Made by a program: the position numbers and the translations under genes. A DNA stretch of 53,744 nucleotides from a virus (taxonomy: Duplodnaviria; Caudoviricetes). The DNA lies in the IMG/VR virus record IMGVR_UViG_3300022900_000014, positions 1-53,744 of that record. One strand, 5' to 3'. The notes below the pieces were generated by a model. The model ran no database searches. It was not told where the DNA came from and saw only the letters and a program-made list of their open reading frames with translations. This document shows positions 24,326 to 42,734 of the stretch, piece after piece (position 1 is the first letter of the stretch; each line of letters begins with the position of its first letter).

Positions 24326-25165
24326 TTATCCTCTTACTTTATCAGCGATAGACTCAACCGCATCTAACCATTTGCGATATTTGCCGTTTGTAGTTTCAAC
24401 TATAACATAGTTAGCGCCAAGTACAGAAATAGTTCCTACTTCACCAGATTCTTTAATTACAACCTGATTACCTACTTCAAACAATTCACCTTTTACAAAA
24501 GCTTCACGCTTTTCAGAAATCGGTTCTAACTGGATATGCCTATGGTATTCAGACGATTCTTTAATACCCATTGCATTGCGAAGAGTGTCAAATAATTCCT
24601 GACCGCCTTTAAACCCAGAAGGTAATCCCTTTGAAAAAGAAGAGAAATCATTATCTGCTGCAGCAGCTCTCATTTTAGATGCTGACATACCTTCAACACC
24701 TTCAGCATCAGGATCACGCTCACCAGCCGATACTACATTTACGCCACCTTCGAAATTATAGAAACCATGACGTAATTTTTGACCATTGTACTTGTTAGCC
24801 AATGCAGTAAATTCATTAACTCGATCAGATCCAACGACCATTGTTACCTTAGTGAATCCTTGATCGTATAGCTGAGTCAATACTTCTAGAGCATTTTTTA
24901 CATTTTTATCGAGAATAATATTACGACCATGCTTAGGAAACATCTTACGCATTACTTTAATTTTAGTTGCATAATCTAATGGATTCTTTTTTGGATCAGA
25001 TGATTGAGAAGCGTATATGCGATAGTTATTACCTTTTGCAATAGATGCTACTTTGGTAATAAGCTTCTCATGGCCGACCGTCGGTGGATTAAACCGGCCA
25101 AAAGTAAAAACAACTTCTTTAGTTTCTTCAACTAAAAAGTCAGAAAACGATTTAATTGCTGGCAT
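24326..25165 (-). CDS. Cytidylyltransferase-like (HxGH) nucleotidyltransferase
   Basis: FGRFNPPTVGH, VGSDR, SASKMR. Confidence 0.85.
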   Translation of the reverse strand: MPAIKSFSDFLVEETKEVVFTFGRFNPPTVGHEKLITKVASIAKGNNYRIYASQSSDPKKNPLDYATKIKVMRKMFPKHGRNIILDKNVKNALEVLTQLYDQGFTKVTMVVGSDRVNEFTALANKYNGQKLRHGFYNFEGGVNVVSAGERDPDAEGVEGMSASKMRAAAADNDFSSFSKGLPSGFKGGQELFDTLRNAMGIKESSEYHRHIQLEPISEKREAFVKGELFEVGNQVVIKESGEVGTISVLGANYVIVETTNGKYRKWLDAVESIADKVRG

Positions 25166-25316
25166 CGTTTTCTCCTAAAGACTTATCATTTTTCGTTTTG
25201 GCGTTTTCAATTGGACCGGTCGTATCTGCACGCTTACGCTTTTTTGCTTTAAGCGCAAGCAATTCATCGCCTGTTTGTGTATAGTCTACAGCTAAGTAGT
25301 CTTTAAAAGAATACAT
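25152..25316 (-). CDS. Small hypothetical protein (54 aa, not in ORF track)
   Basis: MYSFKDYLAVDY...; fills the intergenic gap. Confidence 0.55.
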   Translation of the reverse strand: MYSFKDYLAVDYTQTGDELLALKAKKRKRADTTGPIENAKTKNDKSLGENDASN

Positions 25317-25328
25317 ATGCATTTCCCA

Positions 25329-26567
25329 TTAAGATCGAGACGGAGTGTCCCAACCTTTTATTATATTTGGATCAAAGTTATTAGTCGAAAATTCTAATCG
25401 ATCTACTAACTTTACTGCTCCACCACCTGTTCGATCTATAGCAACAAAGCCTTCATGACCGGTCACTTTAAATCCATTTTTTGTTTTTACAAAGGTATTT
25501 ATATCTTTTAATTTATTAAGCTTATTAATAAGTATCAATTTAGCCGCAACAATTGCTTTTTGTAAGTCAAATACTAACTTAAGATTTGCTTTGTTTTGCG
25601 GGCTAAAGAACTTAAGTATTTCATCACGCTTTGCAAATTGAGCTTGTTTACCCTTTTCAGAACTACGCTTATCAGCTTCTTTATTGAACCTTTCAGATAT
25701 CCAATTAATTAGGTTATCAACATGCTTCTTAGTATCAGTAATCTGTGTCTTATTACGAACCATAGAGTTGTTAAACGTTTCAATCATTCCAGAAAATTCT
25801 GAATTCTTTTCTAACTCTTTAAGAGTAGATGATGCGATGCTATTAAATATTTTTCCAGCAATCGATAAGGCTTTAGTTACTTCATCAGTATCAGCCTTTG
25901 TTAATGTTGCTGTACCAGAAAGATCTCGTAGTTCAGCGTCTTGTGCCCATATCGTAGAAACTTTATTGAATTTAGATACGTCAACGCCATAGTTAGCCGT
26001 CATTGTTTCAAAGCTTCCGCCCGAATACGACGTGTGGAAAACAATTCCAATCTTAGCTGCCTTTATCTTCTTTGCTTCTGCAGAAGAATCTTGTACAGCG
26101 TAAACGATTGTATTCGGATGGAAAGTAATGTACTTAGATCCGTCTATTGTTTCAGTTTTCAAATCAGATTGAGTAAACATAATGTCGCCTTGAACAACAT
26201 CAGTAATACCAAGCTTACTCATCTCATCGAATGCGATCTTGAGCTTGTTTGATAGATCGCCAGATGTATCAGCATCGATATCAGCATGCGACTTATACAC
26301 CTTAGGATTCTTGTTAAAAATACCCTTTTTAGCCACAAAGAACTGTCCATCTGATGGATCGATACCAGCAAAGACTGCAGGAGCTCCATCCCACTTGACA
26401 GTTACATCAGTGGCTGATGCAGCTGACCCAGCTAACATGTCCCTTAAAGAGCGTAATGCAAGTATAGCATTGCGTGCACCTTTTACACCACCATAGATAA
26501 CCTGATCTTCGATGTGAGTCATGTGCGTATTTTTTTCTTCTGACAAATATTGTTTAAACTTTATCAT
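25329..26567 (-). CDS. Conserved T4-like phage protein, ligase-like KxDG/EG motifs
   Basis: KNTHMTHIED, TVKWDGAP, QGD, EGFV, KLVDR. Confidence 0.7.
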   Translation of the reverse strand: MIKFKQYLSEEKNTHMTHIEDQVIYGGVKGARNAILALRSLRDMLAGSAASATDVTVKWDGAPAVFAGIDPSDGQFFVAKKGIFNKNPKVYKSHADIDADTSGDLSNKLKIAFDEMSKLGITDVVQGDIMFTQSDLKTETIDGSKYITFHPNTIVYAVQDSSAEAKKIKAAKIGIVFHTSYSGGSFETMTANYGVDVSKFNKVSTIWAQDAELRDLSGTATLTKADTDEVTKALSIAGKIFNSIASSTLKELEKNSEFSGMIETFNNSMVRNKTQITDTKKHVDNLINWISERFNKEADKRSSEKGKQAQFAKRDEILKFFSPQNKANLKLVFDLQKAIVAAKLILINKLNKLKDINTFVKTKNGFKVTGHEGFVAIDRTGGGAVKLVDRLEFSTNNFDPNIIKGWDTPSRS

Positions 26568-30285: not shown

Positions 30286-30482
30286 TAGATTACCTTAATA
30301 CCTTCTGCCCAATTCTCCGCAGCTGAGACTACATAACTTAAATGCTTACCAGGAAATTCTTCTTTCTGAATAAGCTTACCTGATTTATAATACTCTAACT
30401 TAAATATGTTACCTTCATTAATTACATGAACGCGCATATCAGGATCTTCATTATGCCACAACGAATACATTATACTAGACAT
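30285..30482 (-). CDS. Hypothetical protein
   Basis: Coupled ORF. Confidence 0.6.
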   Translation of the reverse strand: MSSIMYSLWHNEDPDMRVHVINEGNIFKLEYYKSGKLIQKEEFPGKHLSYVVSAAENWAEGIKVI

Positions 30483-31176
30483 ATTCTTCTCCTGCCAGTT
30501 CGCGAATCATAGGAAAAACTTTAGCAATCTCAGCCGCACACTCTCTTGCAATCTGGATGTGTTCCTTCTGAGTACCATTTGATGAGCGCAATTCTATATA
30601 ATGAACCCATGAACGTAACGTACCATTTACATACATTCTAGATATAGTATTGCCTTCCGGTAAAACCGCTCTGGCTTGTTCTTTCGCAATACCGTTTTCA
30701 ATAGCCCAGCGATACGCCATCTTTGCTTCATGTATTACTTGGTACTGAATTGCTTGCCAATCTTTTTGTAGTTGTTGCCCTTCTGGACCAGATAGCTCAT
30801 CGATGTCTATAGAGTTTTGACGGTTCGATGTATCTTGCAAACGTGCTTCACGCAACGTAAAATCTAAGTCTTCAGTTGGATCAGCATAACGTTGACTAAA
30901 CTCCTGAAAACTAAAACTACGATGGCGGAGTATCTGGCGTGCAATATCACGCGTAGTTTCAATTTCAACACAAGCTGACACCATTTCTAATGGAGACCAA
31001 TGCTTATGCTTAATAAGATACTTAACTAGCTTCTCGGCTGTCTTTGGATTACTTTGATTTGCGGGATTAGATACCCTAGCACAAAACGCAATAAGTTCTA
31101 GCAGACTTTTCTTATCAGGGTATTCTATATCAGGATCAACTGGAACCTGTGAATAGTTAATTAGTTTTGCTGTCAT
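30475..31176 (-). CDS. thyX: Flavin-dependent thymidylate synthase
   Basis: RHRSFSFQEFSQRY signature; EQARAVLP. Confidence 0.96.
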   Translation of the reverse strand: MTAKLINYSQVPVDPDIEYPDKKSLLELIAFCARVSNPANQSNPKTAEKLVKYLIKHKHWSPLEMVSACVEIETTRDIARQILRHRSFSFQEFSQRYADPTEDLDFTLREARLQDTSNRQNSIDIDELSGPEGQQLQKDWQAIQYQVIHEAKMAYRWAIENGIAKEQARAVLPEGNTISRMYVNGTLRSWVHYIELRSSNGTQKEHIQIARECAAEIAKVFPMIRELAGEEYV

Positions 31177-32546
31177 ACTCTAAAGCCCTCAAATTTAGAT
31201 GGATTGTTATTCACATATGAAGTATTCTGATTAGTCTGATTTGAATCTACAAGATTCTGCGCTGACTGTTCAACATCAAATAGCTTCATCTTACTACGAT
31301 CAACGCCTATAATAAAGCGTTTGTTTGAGCTTGGATCATTATATCTATTCTTCAATTGCTTAACTAGTATTTGTCCAAGGTTTTCAAGCTCTTCGTTACT
31401 AATCAATGCAAACATTAAGTCAGCTGTTGCGGGTAGACCGAATGATTCTGATGTATCTTCTAGACCGACGTCTGAGTTAGAAAAGCCAGAACGTGTTGTT
31501 TGTGTTGCAGACACAATAGGAACATTAAACTCAACTGCAAGACCACGAATTTCTTCAGCGATTGCTTTGATGTATGAGTAAGAGTTAATTGCTCCGCCCA
31601 TACCTTTCATTCGAGATGAAGAACAAATATTAAGATAGTCGATAAAAACAATATCAGGCTTAAAGTTTTTCTTTAGCTGAAGCTCTTTGAGCAATGCCCT
31701 GAAATGTCCAACATGAGCTGCACCAGTAGGATATTCTTTAATGATCAATTTGCCTTGGAACCGATCTGCAATATTACCTACCTTCGAAGTAAACATTTCT
31801 TTTGATAGGTTAGGTAACTGATCAATCGCAACATTCAATAAGTTTGCATCGATACGTTCAGCAATCTTTTCTTCTGCCATTTCCATAGTAATGTATAATG
31901 CGTTCTTCCCTTGAGCAAGAACAGATCCAGCAACATGACACATGAACAGCGATTTACCTACACCAGTACCAGCAAGAGCTATATTCAAAGTCTTCTTAGG
32001 TAGTCCACCTTTCGTAATCTGATTAAAGTAATCTAGATCGAATGGAATCTTTTCTTCGACTTTATGATAGAAGTCATACCGCTCTTCTATGTCATTCGTA
32101 TAGTCATGACCAACGTGTGTATCAAATGCAATTGATAAAGCATTCTGTAATAACTCTGGCAATGCATTCTTTGTTAGCTCTGGATCTTTACCGTCAATGA
32201 TAGAGATTGATTTCATGATAGCAAGATGTATTGCACGATCTTGACACCACTTTTCGGTTTGCTCAAGCAACCAAGAAAGATCAGGCTTTTCTTCAGAAGT
32301 AGACAATTCATTAATCAACGTGCTAATATCAGTATACATGTTATCACTGAGATTGACATCGTCGAGTTGAATCTTTAGCGTTTCGACTGTAGGTAATTTA
32401 TTGTACTTTGTAACAAAGGATAAGATAAGATCGAAGGTGATTTTATGCTCACCTTCGAAATATTCTTTCTTTAAGAAAGGAACTACTTTACGTGTAAAAT
32501 CATCATTAGTTAATAGATTTCGTAAAATTGTCGTCTGGATTGTCAT
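31173..32546 (-). CDS. 41: Replicative DNA helicase (T4 gp41)
   Basis: AGTGVGKS, EMAEE, IDYLNIC, SESFGLP, KQLKNRY. Confidence 0.95.
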   Translation of the reverse strand: MTIQTTILRNLLTNDDFTRKVVPFLKKEYFEGEHKITFDLILSFVTKYNKLPTVETLKIQLDDVNLSDNMYTDISTLINELSTSEEKPDLSWLLEQTEKWCQDRAIHLAIMKSISIIDGKDPELTKNALPELLQNALSIAFDTHVGHDYTNDIEERYDFYHKVEEKIPFDLDYFNQITKGGLPKKTLNIALAGTGVGKSLFMCHVAGSVLAQGKNALYITMEMAEEKIAERIDANLLNVAIDQLPNLSKEMFTSKVGNIADRFQGKLIIKEYPTGAAHVGHFRALLKELQLKKNFKPDIVFIDYLNICSSSRMKGMGGAINSYSYIKAIAEEIRGLAVEFNVPIVSATQTTRSGFSNSDVGLEDTSESFGLPATADLMFALISNEELENLGQILVKQLKNRYNDPSSNKRFIIGVDRSKMKLFDVEQSAQNLVDSNQTNQNTSYVNNNPSKFEGFRV

Positions 32547-32895
32547 TGTTTTCCTTATTACCAATTGCGTAATTATCATTATCTAAAGCTTCAGTAATAA
32601 TACATTGAAGCATATCACCTAGATAGTTATTAAAGTCACTATCTGATTCTAAAAAAGTTTCATCAATACCAGAAGGAGCTTTATTAACAACGTACTCAAA
32701 AGATAGTGTTGCTTCATCTATGTCTGGATTAGTAGGTTCAGTTATTGCTATTTTTCCGTACGTGATGACTGTCCCAGAGTACTTACCCGTTAATATTTTG
32801 AATGAGTCATGATTAGAATTTTCAATAAATTCGATTCGTTCATAGTCATGTGTAGATATATTATACACTATATTCCCCTTCTTGTACAACATCAA
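32506..32895 (-). CDS. Hypothetical protein in the T4 gp40 position
   Basis: Lies between uvsX and 41; start may be GTG at 32868. Confidence 0.55.
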   Translation of the reverse strand: MMLYKKGNIVYNISTHDYERIEFIENSNHDSFKILTGKYSGTVITYGKIAITEPTNPDIDEATLSFEYVVNKAPSGIDETFLESDSDFNNYLGDMLQCIITEALDNDNYAIGNKENNDNPDDNFTKSIN

Positions 32896-33922
32896 CGCCT
32901 TCTATTTCAGAACGATAACCAATAGTATAGTGCTTCTTCACGAATTCTTTGAAGTCTTCATTAGCAAGGATTGGATCCCAGAATTCTGCAGTTAGCGTTT
33001 GTGCTTCACGAACTTTCGGTTCAATCATTTCACCTGTCTTTTTATCAATAGCTTGATACCAACCATTAGAAGGTTTAACAACATATCCACCAGCCATACC
33101 AACTTCAAGTAAGCCAGAGTATTTTTCTACGCCACCTTCCCATGATACTGTAACAGGAACCTTAGACTTTTCTTTTACGAATCGTGACTTTTCAACGTTG
33201 ATTACAAAGTCATATCCAGTTACTTCAGTACCTTTCTTATTTTGACGACGACCAAGAATCCATATAGTATCGGCAGAATAATAAATGCCTGTACCACCAG
33301 AAACAACAGCTTTAGGGAAGAGTCCAATCTCTTGATAAGTATGATTCACAGCAAGCATCGGAATATCTTTCATAGTCAAATAAGGAGTTGACATACGGAA
33401 GAGACCTTTGAGTGCTTTAGCACGAGACATATCAGCTACAGACTTTTCATTCATAGCATCTTCAAGTTCTTTCTTCGATGCAAGGTTACCGATAGAGTCA
33501 ATAACAACTATGACTTTATCTTCACGATCGATGGCTTCAAGCTGATTGATTAGATCGAATTTTAGTTCTTCAACGTTTGTGATAGGAGTATGAAGTACAC
33601 GAGAAACATCGATACCGAACGATTCGAAATACGCTTGAGGAGAACCAAACTCTGAATCATAAAACAACATAATAGAATCTGGATACTTTTGCATATATGC
33701 ACCTGCCATAAGTAACGCAAAAGAAGTTTTGAAATGCTTAGATGGACCAGCAAGAACTGTAAGACCAGGAGTTAATCCACCATCGACAGAACCAGAAAGC
33801 GCTACGTTTATCATAGGCACTTCAGTTGTAATCATATCCTTTTCAGCAAAGAATTTCGATTTTGAAAGAACTTCGGTATTAGCTAGCTTAGAGTTCTTTT
33901 TGAGTTTATCCATTATAGACAT
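32861..33922 (-). CDS. uvsX: RecA-like recombinase UvsX
   Basis: GPSKHFKT, YDSEFG, DSIGNLAS, SGGTG. Confidence 0.95.
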   Translation of the reverse strand: MSIMDKLKKNSKLANTEVLSKSKFFAEKDMITTEVPMINVALSGSVDGGLTPGLTVLAGPSKHFKTSFALLMAGAYMQKYPDSIMLFYDSEFGSPQAYFESFGIDVSRVLHTPITNVEELKFDLINQLEAIDREDKVIVVIDSIGNLASKKELEDAMNEKSVADMSRAKALKGLFRMSTPYLTMKDIPMLAVNHTYQEIGLFPKAVVSGGTGIYYSADTIWILGRRQNKKGTEVTGYDFVINVEKSRFVKEKSKVPVTVSWEGGVEKYSGLLEVGMAGGYVVKPSNGWYQAIDKKTGEMIEPKVREAQTLTAEFWDPILANEDFKEFVKKHYTIGYRSEIEGVDVVQEGEYSV

Positions 33923-33952: not shown

Positions 33953-33981
33953 ATTATACCATGAATTCGTCTAATTGTACA
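33953..33981 (-). promoter_or_regulatory. Sigma70-like promoter of uvsX
   Basis: TGTACA-N17-TATAAT. Confidence 0.75.
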
Positions 33982-34997
33982 CCGCTATTCTTTGGTGCAC
34001 CTTGCCTCTGTTCCCATCCAGAGTTCCATCCAGAATTGTTAGTAATTGTAGAAGGAACATGATCAAATGTATTATCAGAACGAGGGACATAGTTCTGACC
34101 AAATCTTACGAAGTCACACATAACATCTTCATTATCACGTGGCGCTCCACCTATACGCTCACACAGCAGATCCATGAATTCGTCTGTAGTATAACCAGAA
34201 GATAAAACTTTCATGCATCGTACAGCGTTATTACCAAAATATCCGTGGGACATATCATCCACAAGATCTTTATGATAATCACCTAGATCATATGAAAAAG
34301 CAGCATAGACAAAGTTAAATCGCTTATGACCTTCTCGAACGTTATGTTCATTCAAATAGTCGACGACTTGTTTGTGTGTTTTCTTTTCTCCAGCATGAAG
34401 CCAATCGATAAGCTCATCAAGAAGCTTAGGTAGCTCATCTGTCATAAAGTCAACGCAAGATACTCCTTTACGTGGACTCGGTGGTTGGTTACCAATAGAA
34501 GTAAACAACGCTTGGCCAGACGCTTTGCGTCGCTTAAGATCTTCTATCATTTCATCGATTGATGATAGCTTACCCCAATACTGAATTGCGTTATTACGAT
34601 AACCATGATCTCGCGTGAACGATGCACCTGAACCAGTTGTTCTATGGCACATATACGCAAACAGCCACGTTTTCAGATCCCATGTATCAGTAATATATGA
34701 GTCAACCAAGTCCCAATGATTCTTACCGAGTGAGGAATTATTTAACTGATGATGACGCTTTGGAGTATCTGATCTGTACTTTAAGTCCTGGAGTACGTTA
34801 GAAAATCCAGCAGCATTACGAGAGAAACAATCGTAGATATCTATCTGTTGCATAAGAGGGTCATTGACTGCAGCATTTGCTTCAGGACCAACGTATGACA
34901 GTTTTCCCCAGTTACAATTCTCTTGTAACCATTTAGCACGAGGATAATAATAATGTACTAATACGTCTAATGCTTCTTCATTTAGCCACTTTGCCAT
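33954..34997 (-). CDS. Putative aGPT-PPlase / HhH-fold DNA base hypermodification protein
   Basis: F...YDL, GNNAVRCM and EDVMCDFVRF resemble aGPT-PPlase motifs; gene context; start set at MAKW (track gives 35039). Confidence 0.5.
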   Translation of the reverse strand: MAKWLNEEALDVLVHYYYPRAKWLQENCNWGKLSYVGPEANAAVNDPLMQQIDIYDCFSRNAAGFSNVLQDLKYRSDTPKRHHQLNNSSLGKNHWDLVDSYITDTWDLKTWLFAYMCHRTTGSGASFTRDHGYRNNAIQYWGKLSSIDEMIEDLKRRKASGQALFTSIGNQPPSPRKGVSCVDFMTDELPKLLDELIDWLHAGEKKTHKQVVDYLNEHNVREGHKRFNFVYAAFSYDLGDYHKDLVDDMSHGYFGNNAVRCMKVLSSGYTTDEFMDLLCERIGGAPRDNEDVMCDFVRFGQNYVPRSDNTFDHVPSTITNNSGWNSGWEQRQGAPKNSGVQLDEFMV

Positions 34998-35938
34998 TAC
35001 TGAAAGAAATCCTCTAGTGTTGTTTCTGCTATACCCCAATTTTTTCTGCGATAAACTTCTGGACTCAGATGAACTGACTTAGGCTTCTCCATCTTTTCAT
35101 TTGCGTATTGCTCTGGATTCATTCTATACCATTCATCAGGAGCTTTGACAATATTCACTGAGTTATATAACATATACTCATAGATATCATCCACCAAGGC
35201 GGAACGTTCTTCATGCGATCCCCAAAATGGTTGGTCCTTATAGTATCCAGTCTTCGGTAGCTTTCTCCCTTCAAACTCGATTGGCCATGGTAATGAATAC
35301 TCGACTTCTATACCTAAGCTATTACCAAACTCAAAGAGAGCATCGTACATCGCTACCCAATCGCTATTCACACGTAAGAAATGATGACGAACATCTATAT
35401 TGCCTAAACTAATCGTTACACCTTTCCATGGCTTCTTATCAATATGATGACGAAGATATTCAAAGTTTGTTTTTACTTGATTGAAGAGTGTAGTGCCATC
35501 TTGTTTTACAACAGCACTATTGTTTCGTGAATACGCAGCGGTATGGCTATCACCAACAGCTAACCAATCAAAATTAAGATCAGACGAAACTAAAGTTTTT
35601 GCAGTAGATAACTTTGCAGTGATACGATCGCACCATGCCTTGTCTACTACATCCTTACGCTTCTTTAGCATTCCACCATAGTCAGGCATATCAATATCAA
35701 GAGAGATGATCTCATTGGCCTGGAGTAGGTTATTAATGCTAGCTTCAAGCTCTTCATCAAATCCACCAAATAGATTTAATGAACCACCGAAGTTTGCTCC
35801 ATGCAAAAGATAAACCTTGGAGTGAGCTTGATTACTAAAATCGATTTCTACTCCAAGGTTTTCTGACCAAGTTCTTGCCCAACCAAAGCTGTGGCTATTT
35901 TTCTTTTGTGCTATTTTTGTAAATGATCCAACTATCAT
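34997..35938 (-). CDS. SGNH/GDSL-fold protein with N-terminal domain resembling T4 beta-glucosyltransferase
   Basis: GDSH, GNID, SVHL blocks; SLNLFGG...DIDMP. Confidence 0.55.
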   Translation of the reverse strand: MIVGSFTKIAQKKNSHSFGWARTWSENLGVEIDFSNQAHSKVYLLHGANFGGSLNLFGGFDEELEASINNLLQANEIISLDIDMPDYGGMLKKRKDVVDKAWCDRITAKLSTAKTLVSSDLNFDWLAVGDSHTAAYSRNNSAVVKQDGTTLFNQVKTNFEYLRHHIDKKPWKGVTISLGNIDVRHHFLRVNSDWVAMYDALFEFGNSLGIEVEYSLPWPIEFEGRKLPKTGYYKDQPFWGSHEERSALVDDIYEYMLYNSVNIVKAPDEWYRMNPEQYANEKMEKPKSVHLSPEVYRRKNWGIAETTLEDFFQ

Positions 35939-36840
35939 TCCAGATTCTTATCCCAATCACGGTAACTATCAATGCGTTCATAAATTGTTTCATCGTGGAC
36001 TGGCGGCTCACAACCAACGTTCCAAAATAAAATATCTCTTCCGCTGTTCTTAGGTATATATGGCCACGCCTTTGCATCATATTGTGCAATGCATGGGAAT
36101 GGAGGCATTTGTTCCTGTTTTAACGGCGCGGTGAAGGCTAGCGGATGGCTTATGATTCGGTCATGTCCAACTTCACCAGCCTTCATGTTGCGAGCAACCG
36201 CAACGCCATAAAACTTTGCATTCGGCCATGCGATCTGCAATGACCGATGTAATACTCCAGTTGATAAGACTGTCCACACTTCTTCTGGTTCAGGAATTTG
36301 AGATGCAGTCTTTACAAACCCTGCAGTGACTAATTCATGCTTTAATCCTAATGGCACAAAGAATGCGTTAGGATTTTCATCTGCCCACTTCTTAGCAATT
36401 AGGTTTAGATTAGGCATCGCAGCAATACGATGGAAACTTACTTCTGCACCCTGTTCAATACATGCAGCTTGATGCGCACTGATCTTTTTAGAAGAAGGCA
36501 TGAATAGACGTACCTTCTTATTATGACGTTTTGCAACGTTAAGCAAAGATACACCGGCAAGTCCAAACCGTGGCTGAACATATACGATTGTATCGATATG
36601 CTCTGGTAGACTACTAATTAAGCAATCACCACCACGAATCTTTGAACCGACAATTAAGTCATCACGAACAACACGAACACCTTCATAAGTTTCAATAACA
36701 GGTGCAGGATTTGGATCCGTCCAATCTCCTGCAAGGTCAAGATAATACTTACGAGCATCTTCACGGCCGAAGACACCTTCCATAATTAAGCCATCAACAT
36801 CCTTATTGATATTATCGATAACGTGTTTATTATGCGACAT
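35935..36840 (-). CDS. PLP-dependent enzyme, fold type II (Trp synthase beta/cysteine synthase-like)
   Basis: VVRDD...GSKIR (Schiff-base Lys), STG phosphate loop, FWNVG. Confidence 0.8.
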   Translation of the reverse strand: MSHNKHVIDNINKDVDGLIMEGVFGREDARKYYLDLAGDWTDPNPAPVIETYEGVRVVRDDLIVGSKIRGGDCLISSLPEHIDTIVYVQPRFGLAGVSLLNVAKRHNKKVRLFMPSSKKISAHQAACIEQGAEVSFHRIAAMPNLNLIAKKWADENPNAFFVPLGLKHELVTAGFVKTASQIPEPEEVWTVLSTGVLHRSLQIAWPNAKFYGVAVARNMKAGEVGHDRIISHPLAFTAPLKQEQMPPFPCIAQYDAKAWPYIPKNSGRDILFWNVGCEPPVHDETIYERIDSYRDWDKNLE

Positions 36841-37275
36841 CTATTCTATCAATTCCCATTCAATTCCAGCTTCTTCAAACATTTGTATAGTTAACGCAAA
36901 TGATGCATTCCATCTCTTTGGAACACCATCGCAACGCATCACTACACGCTTTATACCAGTCTGAATAATTCCTTTAGCACATTCTGAACACACAGGAAGT
37001 CCTGTAACATATAACGTAGAACCATCAAGTGAAACTCCATTATATGTAGCATTATAGATCACATTCATTTCTGCATGCACTACATAGGTATACTTAGTTT
37101 CCTTATCGTTATACCGTTCTTTGCTATCGTCAATACCTCGAGGAAAGCCATTGTAACCTTGAGACAATATTTGTCCTTTGCTTCCAACAGCTACAGCACC
37201 GATTTTACGAGATGGATCCTTTGACCAAGAAGAAACATTTTCAGCTAGGTCTAGATATCGATTGTCCCACGTCAT
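36841..37275 (-). CDS. cd: dCMP deaminase
   Basis: SKDPS, GYNGFPRG, HAEMN, PVCSEC. Confidence 0.93.
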   Translation of the reverse strand: MTWDNRYLDLAENVSSWSKDPSRKIGAVAVGSKGQILSQGYNGFPRGIDDSKERYNDKETKYTYVVHAEMNVIYNATYNGVSLDGSTLYVTGLPVCSECAKGIIQTGIKRVVMRCDGVPKRWNASFALTIQMFEEAGIEWELIE

Positions 37276-37278
37276 ATA

Positions 37279-38022
37279 TTAATCCCAAAGATTTTGATAG
37301 TACTTTCCAAAGAGCCTAAAACCATTTTGAATTCTTGCTTCATACGCTTTACGCCCTTCCCAATCATACACTTTAGTATGATTAGGTCCTTCTATGAGTT
37401 GACTATTACCACCTTCCAGTTTCTTCCAAGCCATATCCCATTCACCAGACTCAAACTGATCTTCCCATTCATCATTAACTTTGCATTCAAACGCAAAGAT
37501 CATTTCGTTAAGTACCCAGTTCCATTGATCTTCACCAATTGAAATATCTTCTGGATTACAAACTTTGTTATTAAATAAACTAAGCTGTGAACTATATTCA
37601 TCGTTGTGATCAATAAGTCTTAGATTTTCAGGTACATCTTCAATATCAACATGAGAATACCCATGTTTACTATCGCGTAACTGCTTGAGCATAGGAAGCG
37701 CAATAAGAGCAAGGGTATTATCCATACTCCAAGTGTCCCAGCGATCAATATGTATTTCAATCTTTTGCTTCTTCTTGCTGTCAATCCAACTTAGAAAGTT
37801 ATATAGCCAAGTGTGTGGACGATCTCCCCATTTTTGAATTTCACCTAATTCTGGTTCAGGCTCTATACTACCGTGAGCAAGCCACTCGCCAAAGTGGTGT
37901 ACACGATCAGCAGGCTGCTCAAACCCATACTCATCTTTTTCCTTTGGTACCCAAAACATCAACTTTTCAGCCAGTTGATAAGGACCAAACCAATCTTTAT
38001 AAGGACCAATATAGACTTTCAT
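37279..38022 (-). CDS. Trp-rich hypothetical protein
   Basis: DTWSMD...GFRLFGKYYQNLWD. Confidence 0.7.
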   Translation of the reverse strand: MKVYIGPYKDWFGPYQLAEKLMFWVPKEKDEYGFEQPADRVHHFGEWLAHGSIEPEPELGEIQKWGDRPHTWLYNFLSWIDSKKKQKIEIHIDRWDTWSMDNTLALIALPMLKQLRDSKHGYSHVDIEDVPENLRLIDHNDEYSSQLSLFNNKVCNPEDISIGEDQWNWVLNEMIFAFECKVNDEWEDQFESGEWDMAWKKLEGGNSQLIEGPNHTKVYDWEGRKAYEARIQNGFRLFGKYYQNLWD

Positions 38023-38023
38023 A

Positions 38024-38686
38024 TTATTTTACTAAGTCAAAATGACGTTCATATACGTGCAAGTTTTGAACTTGCCATGTGATAGTTCCTGGACGAACTC
38101 CAGTTGCTGCGGCAAGTTGATTTAATACTTCACGTTGCCATGCATAATCATTCTTATAACCATACACTGCATCATTAGATCGCATTTGTACTACAGCATG
38201 CAATCGAGTACGCACATAATATGTGACAGCATTAGTGCATATAAAATCGGATTTACCATGTTCGTCAAATTCAAGCCACATAGAAGGACGCGTATAGACT
38301 ATAGTAGCGCGTCGTCCATCTGGATTATTACGTAATTCTCTTAATGCATTATTGTATTGAGAAAAATACTTTTTGGACCAAATGAGATGTCCATAGTTAG
38401 AATTAATTTCACCATACTTATTTGCTGAATATTTCCAAGCAGCAGGCGGTTCTCTACCATCTGTATAGATGTCATTAATATTGGTTGATTGCGATTTATA
38501 CCAAGCAATTTCATTATTGATATAATCAACATTTGGTGTACCGAAAATTGCAGGTTCATCTGCAGTAAAAGATGCACCAATAAGTTCGATAGTGTTTTGT
38601 CCGTTCTTATCTACAGTAAAGGATTGATTTTTTAATTCGTTAATAAAATACGAACGAATATCACTTACTGTCATATGCATTATCAA
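38024..38686 (-). CDS. 42: dCMP hydroxymethylase-like protein (T4 gp42 family)
   Basis: NSNYG, DFICT (catalytic Cys), MRSNDAVYGYKND (Asp at the specificity position), NLHVYERH. Confidence 0.88.
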   Translation of the reverse strand: MIMHMTVSDIRSYFINELKNQSFTVDKNGQNTIELIGASFTADEPAIFGTPNVDYINNEIAWYKSQSTNINDIYTDGREPPAAWKYSANKYGEINSNYGHLIWSKKYFSQYNNALRELRNNPDGRRATIVYTRPSMWLEFDEHGKSDFICTNAVTYYVRTRLHAVVQMRSNDAVYGYKNDYAWQREVLNQLAAATGVRPGTITWQVQNLHVYERHFDLVK

Positions 38687-40561: not shown

Positions 40562-40939
40562 CTATGCTTCCGGATCGACTGGGGCTACCTGGTGAGGAGC
40601 CTTTGTTCTATTAAGGAAGTCTTTATTCGGATCCTGACCTGGAATCTTGCCGCGGGCATACGCCACACCGAATGAGGCATAATTGATTAGGTCTTTGAAC
40701 GAGTCTTCTACCGATTCGAAGTTTGGTTCATAGGTAGGATCATTCTCCATAGCTTCTAGTACAGACCATAATCGTAGAGTCTTAGTATGAATAATATCCA
40801 TCAATGACGCAATACCACGTGGATAGTAATCAGCTTGAACGATTCGTGAGTTTTCATTCTGATAGTCACGAGATTTCCTGTCTTGAAGTTCAGCACATTC
40901 TTGAAGTACTTTTATTGATTCACGCATAGTGTTCTCCAT
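40562..40939 (-). CDS. Nucleotide-modification-associated (Nmad1/DUF1599-like) protein
   Basis: RKSRDY...K..R...ESVEDSFKDLINYA. Confidence 0.6.
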   Translation of the reverse strand: MENTMRESIKVLQECAELQDRKSRDYQNENSRIVQADYYPRGIASLMDIIHTKTLRLWSVLEAMENDPTYEPNFESVEDSFKDLINYASFGVAYARGKIPGQDPNKDFLNRTKAPHQVAPVDPEA

Positions 40940-41383: not shown

Positions 41384-42312
41384 AGATTCGTATACACAAA
41401 TTCGATTGCTCGATTTGCTTCAGTATCAAGTGGTCTATTCTCATACCAATTACCAGTTTCAAGATCTAGCTCTTTACATAGATCTACAATTTCTTGAGTG
41501 GTGATCGGATATTTTTGCTTTACTGCATTTGCTGCGATTGATACCATGAGTTGATACATCTTATGATACCAACCGGTTTCAGATATTGTCTTATATTCTA
41601 AAACCAACTTCTTACTAACGAATGGACAATTAGTATAAGAAGTCCATCTAATATTAGTATTATCCATTTGCTCTTTACGATGTGCAATCAATTGCTTTTG
41701 CATTTCTTCCGGTAAGGAATCAAACAGCGTATTGCCGGTTTTCTTTTGTGCATACGGATGCTTTATAAGAAGAGCATTGACATCAATATCATCGCCTGGA
41801 TTACTGAAAATAAAGTTGTTAGAATCAGCATAGTTCGCAGGGATGTAATACATTCGTGAAACGTCTTTAGTTTGCTTATCTCCCATCGAGTCAAGTTCGG
41901 TATTGAGGGCATACCAGAAATGTTGTATTTTGTCCGATTCAATGCTCCTATTAAGACTGAAGACAAGTCTGAACTTCGGCTTATCAATACTTGAACTTGC
42001 CGTAGAATAGCAAATATACTTCCAAGAATTATTAATGCGAGTATTAAGTACATCTCGTAGATTCTCCATTGTGCAATCTAAATCATCAACATCAACTGCT
42101 GCCCAACCACACCACTTCTCTACATTCTTATTAGCGCGTGTAGTGCCATCATGATATACTGCTGGAGATATTAGTTGTGCATCTTTTTTATTTTTTACGT
42201 CGATTTTAGATAATGAATACAGCAAATCCTCGAACTCGCTCCAAGAATTGAAGTCCATTCGACGATTCGTTTTATTATCCCAATGTGATTTGAATAGCGT
42301 AAGTGAATACAT
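41380..42312 (-). CDS. AEP/prim-pol-like protein
   Basis: VDVDD, YSTASS, KFRLV, KDVSRMYYIP. Confidence 0.6.
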   Translation of the reverse strand: MYSLTLFKSHWDNKTNRRMDFNSWSEFEDLLYSLSKIDVKNKKDAQLISPAVYHDGTTRANKNVEKWCGWAAVDVDDLDCTMENLRDVLNTRINNSWKYICYSTASSSIDKPKFRLVFSLNRSIESDKIQHFWYALNTELDSMGDKQTKDVSRMYYIPANYADSNNFIFSNPGDDIDVNALLIKHPYAQKKTGNTLFDSLPEEMQKQLIAHRKEQMDNTNIRWTSYTNCPFVSKKLVLEYKTISETGWYHKMYQLMVSIAANAVKQKYPITTQEIVDLCKELDLETGNWYENRPLDTEANRAIEFVYTNL

Positions 42313-42734
42313 TACTTAAATGTTCGTGGTAAAAATCCATGATTGCCAGAATGATCCGGTGCTTTCCATTCTTTTGGTTTGATCAGATCCGGTAGTCCGA
42401 GTGGATTTGGACGTGATTCTTTTACACCAACCTCTTTAGCCATGTTTGCAGCATGCACACGATCCCATGCTTGATATGCATCAATACCAAACGAATCAAG
42501 TGTACCAATAGCAACAACGCACAGATCAATAAGACCGTCTACAATTTCTTCTGGATCTTTTACACCAGCTGCATTAATAGTTTCAGTTAGCTCTTCATCT
42601 AAGAACGCAAGACGAAACTTAAGGAATGCCTGAAGCTTTTCGACATCGCTATTGATAATTTTTTCTGATACCCATTCATGCACACCGTATTTTTTGTGCA
42701 TGTCATTGATATCTTGCACCCAATCTTTACTCAT
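42312..42734 (-). CDS. MazG-like NTP pyrophosphohydrolase
   Basis: EELTE...EIVDGLID, ANMAK, KP. Confidence 0.8.
   Translation of the reverse strand: MSKDWVQDINDMHKKYGVHEWVSEKIINSDVEKLQAFLKFRLAFLDEELTETINAAGVKDPEEIVDGLIDLCVVAIGTLDSFGIDAYQAWDRVHAANMAKEVGVKESRPNPLGLPDLIKPKEWKAPDHSGNHGFLPRTFK

Follow-up and report, generated by a model that had tools for sequence, protein, structure and literature searches.

A Candidate Cytosine Hypermodification Module in the β-Glucosyltransferase Slot of a Marine T4-like Phage

Introduction

Thymidine hypermodification, as found in phages M6, ViI, PaMx11, PhiW-14, and SH-Ab 15599, proceeds from the kinase 5-HMUDK through an aGPT-PPlase2/ADDT transferase to a pyridoxal 5′-phosphate (PLP)-dependent decarboxylase. 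To our knowledge, every DNA hypermodification of the amino acid or polyamine type reported to date is on thymine and starts with a DNA kinase, and the known derivatives of 5-hydroxymethylcytosine (5hmC) are sugars and a carbamoyl group. Here, we analyzed a gene cluster in a 53,744-base IMG/VR virus record (IMGVR_UViG_3300022900_000014; hereafter, the window, with an estimated completeness of ~30% of the genome), in which a homolog of T4 gp42 shares a tightly packed run with a PLP enzyme, a protein of predicted SGNH fold, and a helical protein of 347 residues, here called P347. The cluster is a candidate module for the hypermodification of cytosine.

The module shares with the thymidine pathways a pyrimidine hydroxymethylase, a putative enzyme with a predicted helical fold resembling helix-hairpin-helix (HhH) proteins and with a Glu/Cys motif, a gp52-type PLP enzyme, and its clustering beside replication genes. 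On the other hand, it differs from them in having a dCMP-type hydroxymethylase (Asp179), an SGNH-fold protein as the constant partner (fused in other lineages), and a motif that reads E-D-x-x-C instead of E-T-x-x-C. No kinase is seen (the HMUDK_hel domain was searched for, the P-loop domain was not), nor is any HMUDK_hel or ADDT domain detectable by Pfam, and the virus is a T4-like myovirus.

With T4 gp42 and the T4 α- and β-glucosyltransferases, the module has in common a hydroxymethylase (~50% identical), the slot between gene 42 and uvsX and, presumably, the decoration of 5hmC after replication. Unlike in T4, no homolog of the β-glucosyltransferase gene (beta-gt) is found in the window by tblastn, and the putative decorating enzymes come from unrelated families.

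The non-sugar 5hmC derivative that we found in the literature is 5-carbamoyloxymethylcytosine, made by a 5hmC carbamoyltransferase (PMC8670742). As far as the accessible part of that report goes, its system resembles the present one in yielding a non-sugar derivative and in the co-occurrence of a thymidylate synthase homolog, a dCMP deaminase, and a PRA-PH pyrophosphatase, but it differs in using a TobZ-like carbamoyltransferase in a single step, with no amino acid transfer or PLP chemistry. In the part of PMC9599517 available to us, the thymidylate synthase homologs of marine myoviruses are presumed to serve thymidylate synthesis only, as no aGPT-PPlase is seen next to them. We found no description of the present module in the literature; P347-like proteins may be included in supplementary data that lay outside this search, e.g., the contig tables of PMC8989533 or the PMC13458397 similarity network.

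Results

A Six-Gene Cluster Fills the β-Glucosyltransferase Slot

A preliminary description of this DNA, drawn from its letters, had listed a run of six genes at positions 33954–38686 followed by uvsX and gene 41, and the coordinates and packing of this run were confirmed. The six minus-strand genes are tightly packed, with intergenic spacings of +1, +3, 0, −4, and −1 nt in gene order, and uvsX follows after a further 31 nt, with gene 41 and thyX behind it. The T4 record has the gene order 42, beta-gt, segA, uvsX, 40, 41. Since T4 keeps beta-gt between 42 and uvsX, the cluster fills the slot of the β-glucosyltransferase, and because the arrangement recurs in 80 related viral contigs, it is not a product of chance.

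The virus is a marine T4-like myovirus. Nine of 20 T4 queries found a homolog in the window by tblastn (gp41, UvsX, gp42, gp43, RegA, gp62, gp44, gp45, and gp5), and gp56, gp1, beta-gt, dam, and gp61 gave no match in this ~30% of the genome. By UvsX, the nearest cultured relative is phage C48C1 (73% identity), and a megablast search of the region against 50,697 phage records returned no match. The cluster had also been said to contain no complete glucosyltransferase or evident kinase. Neither turned up in the window by tblastn with T4 beta-gt (E 1e-3) or by a scan for PF18723 (the HMUDK_hel domain, not the P-loop kinase domain), but this extends only to ~30% of the genome, so a glucosyltransferase or kinase elsewhere in the genome is possible.

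The Hydroxymethylase Is of the Cytosine Type

Judged by its sequence, the gp42 homolog is a dCMP hydroxymethylase of the T4 type. It matches PF00303 (E 5.5e-19) and, over residues 4–219, the T4 dCMP hydroxymethylase structures 1B49/1B5E (E 4.5e-66), with identities of 50% to T4 gp42 and 53.8% to enzymes of Klebsiella phages. The Asp-type motif MRSNDAVYGYKNDYAWQ, which had been singled out from the start, is present and aligns to T4 gp42 with its Asp at T4 position 179, the residue that we take to set cytosine specificity in T4 gp42 and that is Asn in dUMP enzymes. In an alignment of 42 hydroxymethylases (the window protein, those of T4 and Aeromonas phage 44RR, and 39 distinct ones taken from related loci), this Asp and the catalytic Cys (T4 Cys148) are conserved in all 42. 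At the same position, Asn is found in gp58 of the 5-hydroxymethyldeoxyuridine (5-hmdU) phage M6, a thymidylate synthase homolog that its annotation leads us to infer is a dUMP hydroxymethylase, and in the printed alignment of PDB entry 6L18, where it departs from the wild type.

The genes for nucleotide supply are compatible with ordinary thymine. ThyX, whose presence had been reported, is there, which indicates that dTMP is made; in T4, a dCMP deaminase likewise goes together with ordinary thymine. A MazG/PRA-PH gene and a DUF1599 match adjoin the polymerase gene, and the MazG/PRA-PH protein may be a dCTPase standing in for T4 gp56. PRA-PH proteins (PF01503 family) co-occur with thymidylate synthase homologs on cytosine-modified contigs, according to the accessible part of PMC8670742.

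Two members of the six-gene run fall outside the conserved core. The dCMP deaminase was correctly assigned to its family (PF00383), but it is a movable neighbor and not a fixed part, being present in 58 of 80 related loci at varying positions. Similarly, the hypothetical gene exists where it had been placed, but its 247-residue product probably lies outside the conserved module, with only partial matches in 4 of the 80 loci. That protein has no Pfam (E up to 10) or NCBIfam match; its C-terminal two thirds (residues ~80–247) match hypothetical proteins in 15 phage records, among them, at 28–40% identity, Sinorhizobium phages phiM12, phiM7, and phiN3, Nitrincola phage 1M3-16, Limnohabitans phage DC31, and Agrobacterium phage Atu_ph07.

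The PLP Protein Is Related to a DNA-Acting Decarboxylase

Amino acids that are already attached to DNA lose CO2 through the PLP decarboxylases M6 gp52 and ViI gp226; according to the accessible part of the report, K36 of gp52 is the proposed Schiff-base lysine, and the substrate of such an enzyme is an amino acid with a free α-amine and α-carboxylate (PMC8989533). The PLP protein of the window scores below the cut-off for PF00291 (E 5.4e-7; 29.7 bits against 35), for which M6 gp52 itself reaches 39.5 bits. When compared by hhalign, the profile of its family matches M6 gp52 with a probability of 92% (E 6e-7, 207 columns), which bears out the earlier label. The alignment runs from the lysine of an SKIRG motif, which pairs with the SKIRG of M6 gp52, i.e., with K36, to a common C-terminal PFPC..YD.KAW...FWN.G block. 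Within the family, K67 and an S-T-G-V loop are invariant. The same profile locates the gp52 gene in the M6 genome (E 4e-5); it does not detect ViI gp226, and a HMMER search with it against the PDB finds no solved relative. On these sequence grounds, we class the PLP protein as homologous to M6 gp52, a decarboxylase acting on DNA-bound amino acids.

Among the longer relatives of this protein are fusions with DNA methylases. In Erythrobacter phage vB_EliS_R6L, gp1 (L004:4882–7302) is a ParB-like N6/N4 DNA methylase with a gp52-like PLP domain inserted between the methylase motifs (residues 397–626; family profile E 6.5e-38). Three further long proteins (P0269–P0271) combine PF01555 with the PLP domain, and one of them, from Nitrosomonas, adds an Asp/Asn β-hydroxylase domain. 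These fusions suggest an unexplored PLP-dependent DNA modification linked to methylases.

A Predicted SGNH Fold in the Fifth Protein

The fifth protein, labeled SGNH from the outset, has no Pfam (E up to 10) or NCBIfam match and none to GDSL, and its label is borne out by structure prediction; weak Pfam GDSL matches (E 0.02–0.2) do occur in its fused relatives. The AlphaFold model (mean predicted local distance difference test score, pLDDT, 86.7) has an SGNH fold over residues ~120–303. In the VIA alignment, its best match is 4rsh (Z 11.0, root-mean-square deviation (rmsd) 3.2 Å, 152 residues, covering model residues 122–301); 47 chains reach Z 8 or more, and nearly all of those listed are SGNH/GDSL proteins. 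Foldseek gives eight matches at E 1e-3 or better, including 3mil (E 9.5e-5). The structures matched by fold include PatB and OatA, and SGNH enzymes usually act as esterases or O-acyltransferases.

Across 31 sequences, G129-D130-S131-H132, G148, E284, and H290 are invariant. The first of these was assigned by inspection to SGNH block I (the G-D-S nucleophile) and the Gly to block II. Residues 1–120 carry an invariant glycine-rich motif of their own. We propose that this protein activates or acylates the 5-CH2OH group. The predicted complex of the SGNH protein with P347 scored 0.00, which counts neither for nor against binding.

P347 Resembles Amino Acid:DNA Transferases in Predicted Fold and Motif

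P347 matches no Pfam (E up to 10), NCBIfam, or PHROG family, and tblastn finds no match to it in the 50,697 phage records. Its family nevertheless comprises 279 proteins (clustered at 90% identity) confirmed at E 0.001 or better among 1029 candidates, or 143 clusters at 50% identity. Since the family is unrecognized by Pfam, surveys that depend on annotation miss it. The label "aGPT-PPlase-like", which the preliminary description had given without such support, is borne out by structure prediction together with a motif of catalytic type.

The AlphaFold model of P347 (pLDDT 86.7) was compared with BFVD by Foldseek, and the top match was a viral protein annotated "Amino acid:DNA transferase domain" (E 9.5e-13, TM 0.75). 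The other best viral matches are two unnamed phage proteins, and weaker ones include helical domains of the 5-hmdU DNA kinases from phiRSL1, SP10, and PhiW-14. Foldseek found no PDB entry at E 1e-3 or better. In an exhaustive VIA alignment to 48,161 chains, the first match was 8z2m, the PaMx11 gp46 glycine:DNA transferase (Z 8.1, rmsd 4.3 Å, 205 residues), followed by HhH DNA glycosylases (AGOG, Ogg, AlkA, and EndoIII-type) and a queuine salvage enzyme, a coherent list.

Of the 218 rows of the P347 family, 215 keep the E, 208 the D, and 214 the C of a motif E-D-x-x-C-D; six characterized or annotated transferases share an invariant E-T-x-x-C. In the solved transferases, the Glu and Thr bind a metal, and the Cys, which is essential and catalytic, clamps or activates the base (PMC11472151; PMC13458397). 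A second, very diverse alignment of the P347 family (A5) gave no significant hhalign match to the six transferases, the P347 profile matched M6 gp51 alone at E 0.51, and HMMER searches with the P347, SGNH-like, and PLP proteins or profiles against PDB sequences gave only noise. Given the coherent fold list and the motif, but also the lack of a Pfam match and a non-significant profile comparison, we regard P347 as a distant relative that is probably transferase-like in its action, and we stop short of placing it within ADDT.

Linkage of the Three Core Genes to Gene 42

Linkage was counted in the best 80 of 173 confirmed related viral loci, and a locus enters the filtered counts only if its contig extends far enough from P347 on the side in question. 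After this filtering, the PLP gene is present in 62 of 64 loci, the SGNH gene in 57 of 58, and gp42 in 40 of 41, and uvsX is found in 41 of the 47 loci that have at least 4.5 kb downstream. The unfiltered counts over all 80 loci are 74 for PLP, 62 for SGNH, and 51 for gp42. The preliminary description had named a failure of the three genes to co-occur with gp42 as grounds for giving up its proposal; instead, SGNH, PLP, and P347 almost always stand beside gp42. Their most frequent order is gp42, cd, SGNH, PLP, P347, uvsX (30 loci); the window's own order and gp42, P347, PLP, SGNH are less frequent. Where a partner is missing, a class II aldolase takes the place of the PLP gene (L050), the contig ends at P347 (L077), or there is no gp42 within 9 kb (L048). 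The genes found inserted in the module across the 80 loci included no kinase family.

Fusions tie the SGNH domain to helical domains as well. Among proteins of 450 residues or more, 11 match the P347 profile, and 10 of these match the SGNH profile too; P0121, for example, matches P347 and SGNH at 32% identity (E 2e-37) and 30% identity (E 1e-39), respectively. In the 959-residue metagenomic protein P0125, an FkbM-type methyltransferase and a canonical HMUDK_hel domain (E 1.2e-11) are joined to an SGNH-like domain (E 4.6e-58). As SGNH is fused to helical domains, this architecture mirrors that of 5-HMUDK, with SGNH replacing the P-loop kinase.

A Fused Form in Aeromonas Phages

Aeromonas phages 44RR2.8t (ORF233c), 31, 25, and UP87 encode a protein of ~795 residues whose N-terminal half is homologous to the SGNH-like protein (25–32% identity), and the genomes with this fusion have a gp42 homolog with Asp. 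The group thus shares with the window a homologous SGNH-like part and a gp42 homolog of the Asp type. It differs in that a single fused protein is present, with a C-terminal half weakly related to HMUDK_hel and P347, in that these genomes have no PLP homolog, and in that the gene lies beside a Na+/solute symporter gene rather than beside gene 42. Neither the P347 nor the PLP profile matched 44RR ORF233c significantly by hhalign. Aeromonas phages with an Asp-type gp42 are candidates for carrying an undescribed 5hmC derivative.

In 44RR2.8t (L001:5399–9379), ORF233c directly follows ORF234c, the symporter gene (PF00474 E 6.2e-53), and the phage may import the small molecule that gets attached.

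Discussion

What might such a module do? On balance, the sequences and predicted structures incline us, somewhat, towards the view that it hypermodifies cytosine, with 5hmC in the DNA activated by the SGNH protein, coupled to an amino acid by P347, and then decarboxylated by the PLP enzyme. Homology supports the synthesis of 5-hydroxymethyl-dCMP, the gp52-like PLP enzyme, the SGNH fold, the AADT-like fold and motif of P347, and the linkage and fusions of SGNH and P347.

Before replication, the gp42 homolog would, as its close homology implies, make 5-hydroxymethyl-dCMP, which would replace dC in the phage DNA. The MazG-like pyrophosphatase encoded 4 kb upstream may clear dCTP, and the dCMP deaminase and ThyX would make dTMP, so that thymine would stay ordinary. 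After replication, the SGNH enzyme would esterify the 5-CH2OH of 5hmC, probably with a small acyl group that serves as the leaving group, and would thus fill the role of the P-loop kinase 5-HMUDK of the thymine pathways. P347 would flip the base out, and its Cys294 would attack C6, with Glu290 and Asp291 as likely metal ligands; it would then expel the leaving group, and a free amino acid would add to the exocyclic methylene. Finally, the PLP enzyme would make a Schiff base with the free α-amine of the attached amino acid, and decarboxylation would leave a positively charged, aminoalkyl-type substituent at position 5. A serine donor, as in phage ViI, would give 5-(2-aminoethoxy)methylcytosine. 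Of these steps, the acyl activation, the amino acid exchange through a Cys–C6 adduct, and the decarboxylation of that adduct are ones that we infer. The preliminary description had likewise proposed 5-hydroxymethyl-dC bearing an amino acid-derived or acyl group in place of glucose, and the analysis supports this interpretation, with the chemistry of the final base still a proposal. An alternative raised in the preliminary description, 5-hydroxy-dC as the base, finds no support.

Several observations weigh against this pathway. No SGNH enzyme known to us acylates DNA, and the characterized transferases require a phosphorylated substrate. In the SGNH-like protein, the block III Asn is not conserved (G-[NS]-I-D), and there is no Asp three residues before H290. 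For P347, a Z of 8.1 to 8z2m is modest for a helical protein, and PF18724 and PF18723 match none of 34 close relatives (E up to 10) and none of 42 distant ones (E up to 0.01), while the control, M6 gp51, scores PF18724 at E 1.4e-46. The hhalign comparison of the P347 profile with the alignment of the six transferases was not significant (probability 1%, E 0.052), and the sole stretch that it aligned paired E-D-V-M-C with E-T-V-L-C. A scan for PF18723 (HMUDK_hel) found none in the window or in five related records (30–84% complete), a search that did not cover the P-loop domain itself.

Relatives of the module pose further difficulties for the pathway. A distant P347 subfamily (30% identity) has no gp42, SGNH, or PLP neighbors in 16 of 17 loci, and these three genes are present in none of five larger records of that subfamily. 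In the one locus that does have them, the thymidylate synthase homolog keeps the Asp. Three of four single-protein scans for related loci gave no confirmed relative. Since the distant subfamily stands alone, the P347 family is not always tied to the module. In the Aeromonas fusion, the link of the C-terminal half to helical domains is weak (PF18723 E 0.0036; hhalign to P347 E 0.011), and no E-[DT]-x-x-C motif was found in that half.

Could the product instead be an acylated, or directly amino acid-esterified, 5hmC? The SGNH protein would then be the transferase itself, P347 would bind DNA and flip the base, and the PLP enzyme would tailor the aminoacyl group or have another role. The fusions of the SGNH domain to both P347-type and canonical HMUDK_hel-type helical domains would suit such a scheme, as would the usual esterase or O-acyltransferase activity of SGNH enzymes, with PatB and OatA among the fold matches, and the combination of fusion and gp42 homolog with no PLP homolog in 44RR and UP87. 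Nevertheless, the near-invariant E-D-x-x-C of P347 suggests catalysis beyond binding, and a plain acyl group or an α-carboxyl ester would lack the free α-amine and α-carboxylate that a gp52-like decarboxylase needs, according to the accessible part of PMC8989533. We consider this scheme unlikely, although it deserves to be kept in view.

It is also conceivable that the module works before replication on free 5-hydroxymethyl-dCMP or 5-hydroxymethyl-dCTP and not on DNA. The carbamoyltransferase, the only characterized enzyme for a non-sugar 5hmC derivative in the accessible part of PMC8670742, uses 5-hydroxymethyl-dCTP, and the module is surrounded by genes of nucleotide metabolism. On the other hand, the structural relatives of P347 all flip bases out of DNA, and proteins related to the PLP enzyme either act on DNA or form fusions with DNA methylases, which makes a free-nucleotide substrate quite improbable.

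A thymine-type target would bring the module closer to the characterized relatives of P347 and the PLP protein, all of which act on derivatives of 5-hydroxymethyluracil. If the deaminase, which in 58 of 80 loci is part of the module or adjoins it, turned 5-hydroxymethyl-dCMP into 5-hydroxymethyl-dUMP, the result would be a divergent thymidine hypermodification. Against this, all 42 hydroxymethylases carry the cytosine-type Asp, ThyX makes dTMP, T4 combines a dCMP deaminase with ordinary thymine, and the deaminase shifts its position between loci while the three core genes stay together. We judge a thymine target slightly less probable even than action on free nucleotides.

Lastly, weak or absent Pfam signals and the sugar-nucleotide and serine hydroxymethyltransferase (SHMT) genes in the same slot of relatives could mark the three genes as auxiliary metabolic genes for, e.g., host amino acid or lipid metabolism, but the tight linkage to gp42, the DNA glycosylase-like fold of P347, the homology of the PLP protein to a proven DNA-modifying decarboxylase, and the fusions to DNA methylase and HMUDK_hel domains make this very improbable.

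Returning to hypermodified cytosine in DNA, we put forward, more tentatively and as something a little short of probable, that the ocean T4-like phages and, in the fused form, Aeromonas phages 44RR, 31, and 25 carry an undescribed amino acid-derived, 5-substituted cytosine made by a kinase-free SGNH-acyltransferase/Cys-transferase route. If true, this would add a new natural base, the cytosine counterpart of the thymine hypermodifications, and a new means of activating a nucleobase in DNA, by an acyl instead of a phosphoryl group. The retention of gene 42 without glucosyltransferases in a widespread group of marine myoviruses would be explained as well. Bases of this kind matter for the resistance of phages to restriction and CRISPR, for sequencing bias in metagenomes, and for tools for the enzymatic labeling of DNA.

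Locus Layout and Additional Observations

The features of the locus are collected in Table 1. The open reading frame of P347 spans 33954–35039; homologs begin at the ATG corresponding to 34997, which is, from this comparison, most likely the real start and gives 347 residues.

Table 1. Genes of the cluster and related features in the window.
Feature	Coordinates	Strand	Family or basis
gp42 homolog, dCMP hydroxymethylase; 220 residues from a TTG start (ATG at 38680)	38024–38686	−	PF00303
Hypothetical protein, 247 residues	37279–38022	−	phrog_11543; no Pfam/NCBIfam family
dCMP deaminase, 144 residues	36841–37275	−	PF00383 (E 1.2e-21); phrog_174 (E 1.2e-46)
Fold-type-II PLP enzyme, M6 gp52 homolog	35935–36840	−	PF00291 below cut-off; phrog_7093 (E 1.3e-39)
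SGNH-fold protein, 313 residues, with extra N-terminal region	34997–35938	−	Predicted structure
P347, 347 residues, helical, distantly aGPT-PPlase/amino acid:DNA transferase-like	33954–34997	−	Predicted structure, motif
uvsX recombinase, downstream boundary of the slot	32861–33922	−	PF21134 and PF00154; 52% identical to T4 UvsX
Gene 41	31173–32579		Follows uvsX
ThyX, flavin-dependent thymidylate synthase	30475–31176	−	PF02511 (E 6.4e-42)
MazG/PRA-PH-type nucleotide pyrophosphohydrolase	42312–42734	−	PF01503 (E 1.3e-10); phrog_671 (E 4.8e-24)
Weak DUF1599 ("nucleotide modification associated") match	40562–40939		

Various genes are inserted in the related loci. A UDP-glucose dehydrogenase gene occurs in 21 and an NAD-dependent epimerase gene in 17 of them, with such inserts lying upstream of uvsX in L006 (2646–3830) and L032 (6937–7893). 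Phage C48C1 has the pair upstream of uvsX as well (L003:7141–9041), and neither a gp42 nor a PLP homolog was found there. An SHMT gene lies between the PLP gene and P347 in two loci (e.g., L049:7850–8995); these inserts fit a need for methylene-tetrahydrofolate and do not identify the donor amino acid. A class II aldolase is inserted in four loci (L050:1496–2101), and a weak match to the uracil-DNA glycosylase superfamily in nine (L075:5745–6209).

Among the P347 relatives, one match to Carb_kinase came from P0221 only and was not used as evidence for a kinase partner. This 254-residue metagenomic protein, probably an assembly chimera or a fragment, runs from the end of an NAD(P)HX dehydratase/Carb_kinase-like domain into the last third of a P347-like protein.

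In one locus of the distant P347 subfamily (L111:5187–8159), the P347-like gene, with the motif E-D-V-A-C, lies between genes for 266- and 330-residue proteins of unknown family, with no gp42, SGNH, or PLP gene. The 330-residue protein was considered as a P347 paralog and dropped, as it gave no match to the P347 profile at E up to 10; a homolog 62% identical to it is encoded inside the module of L037 (6217–7206).

Elsewhere in the window (24326–26567), two adjoining genes match phrog_395 (cytidyltransferase, E 6.3e-74) and, at E 1.2e-90, phrog_455. The cytidyltransferase-like protein is matched by the second half of the phrog_455 profile as well, and the gene pair may represent one split or duplicated function.

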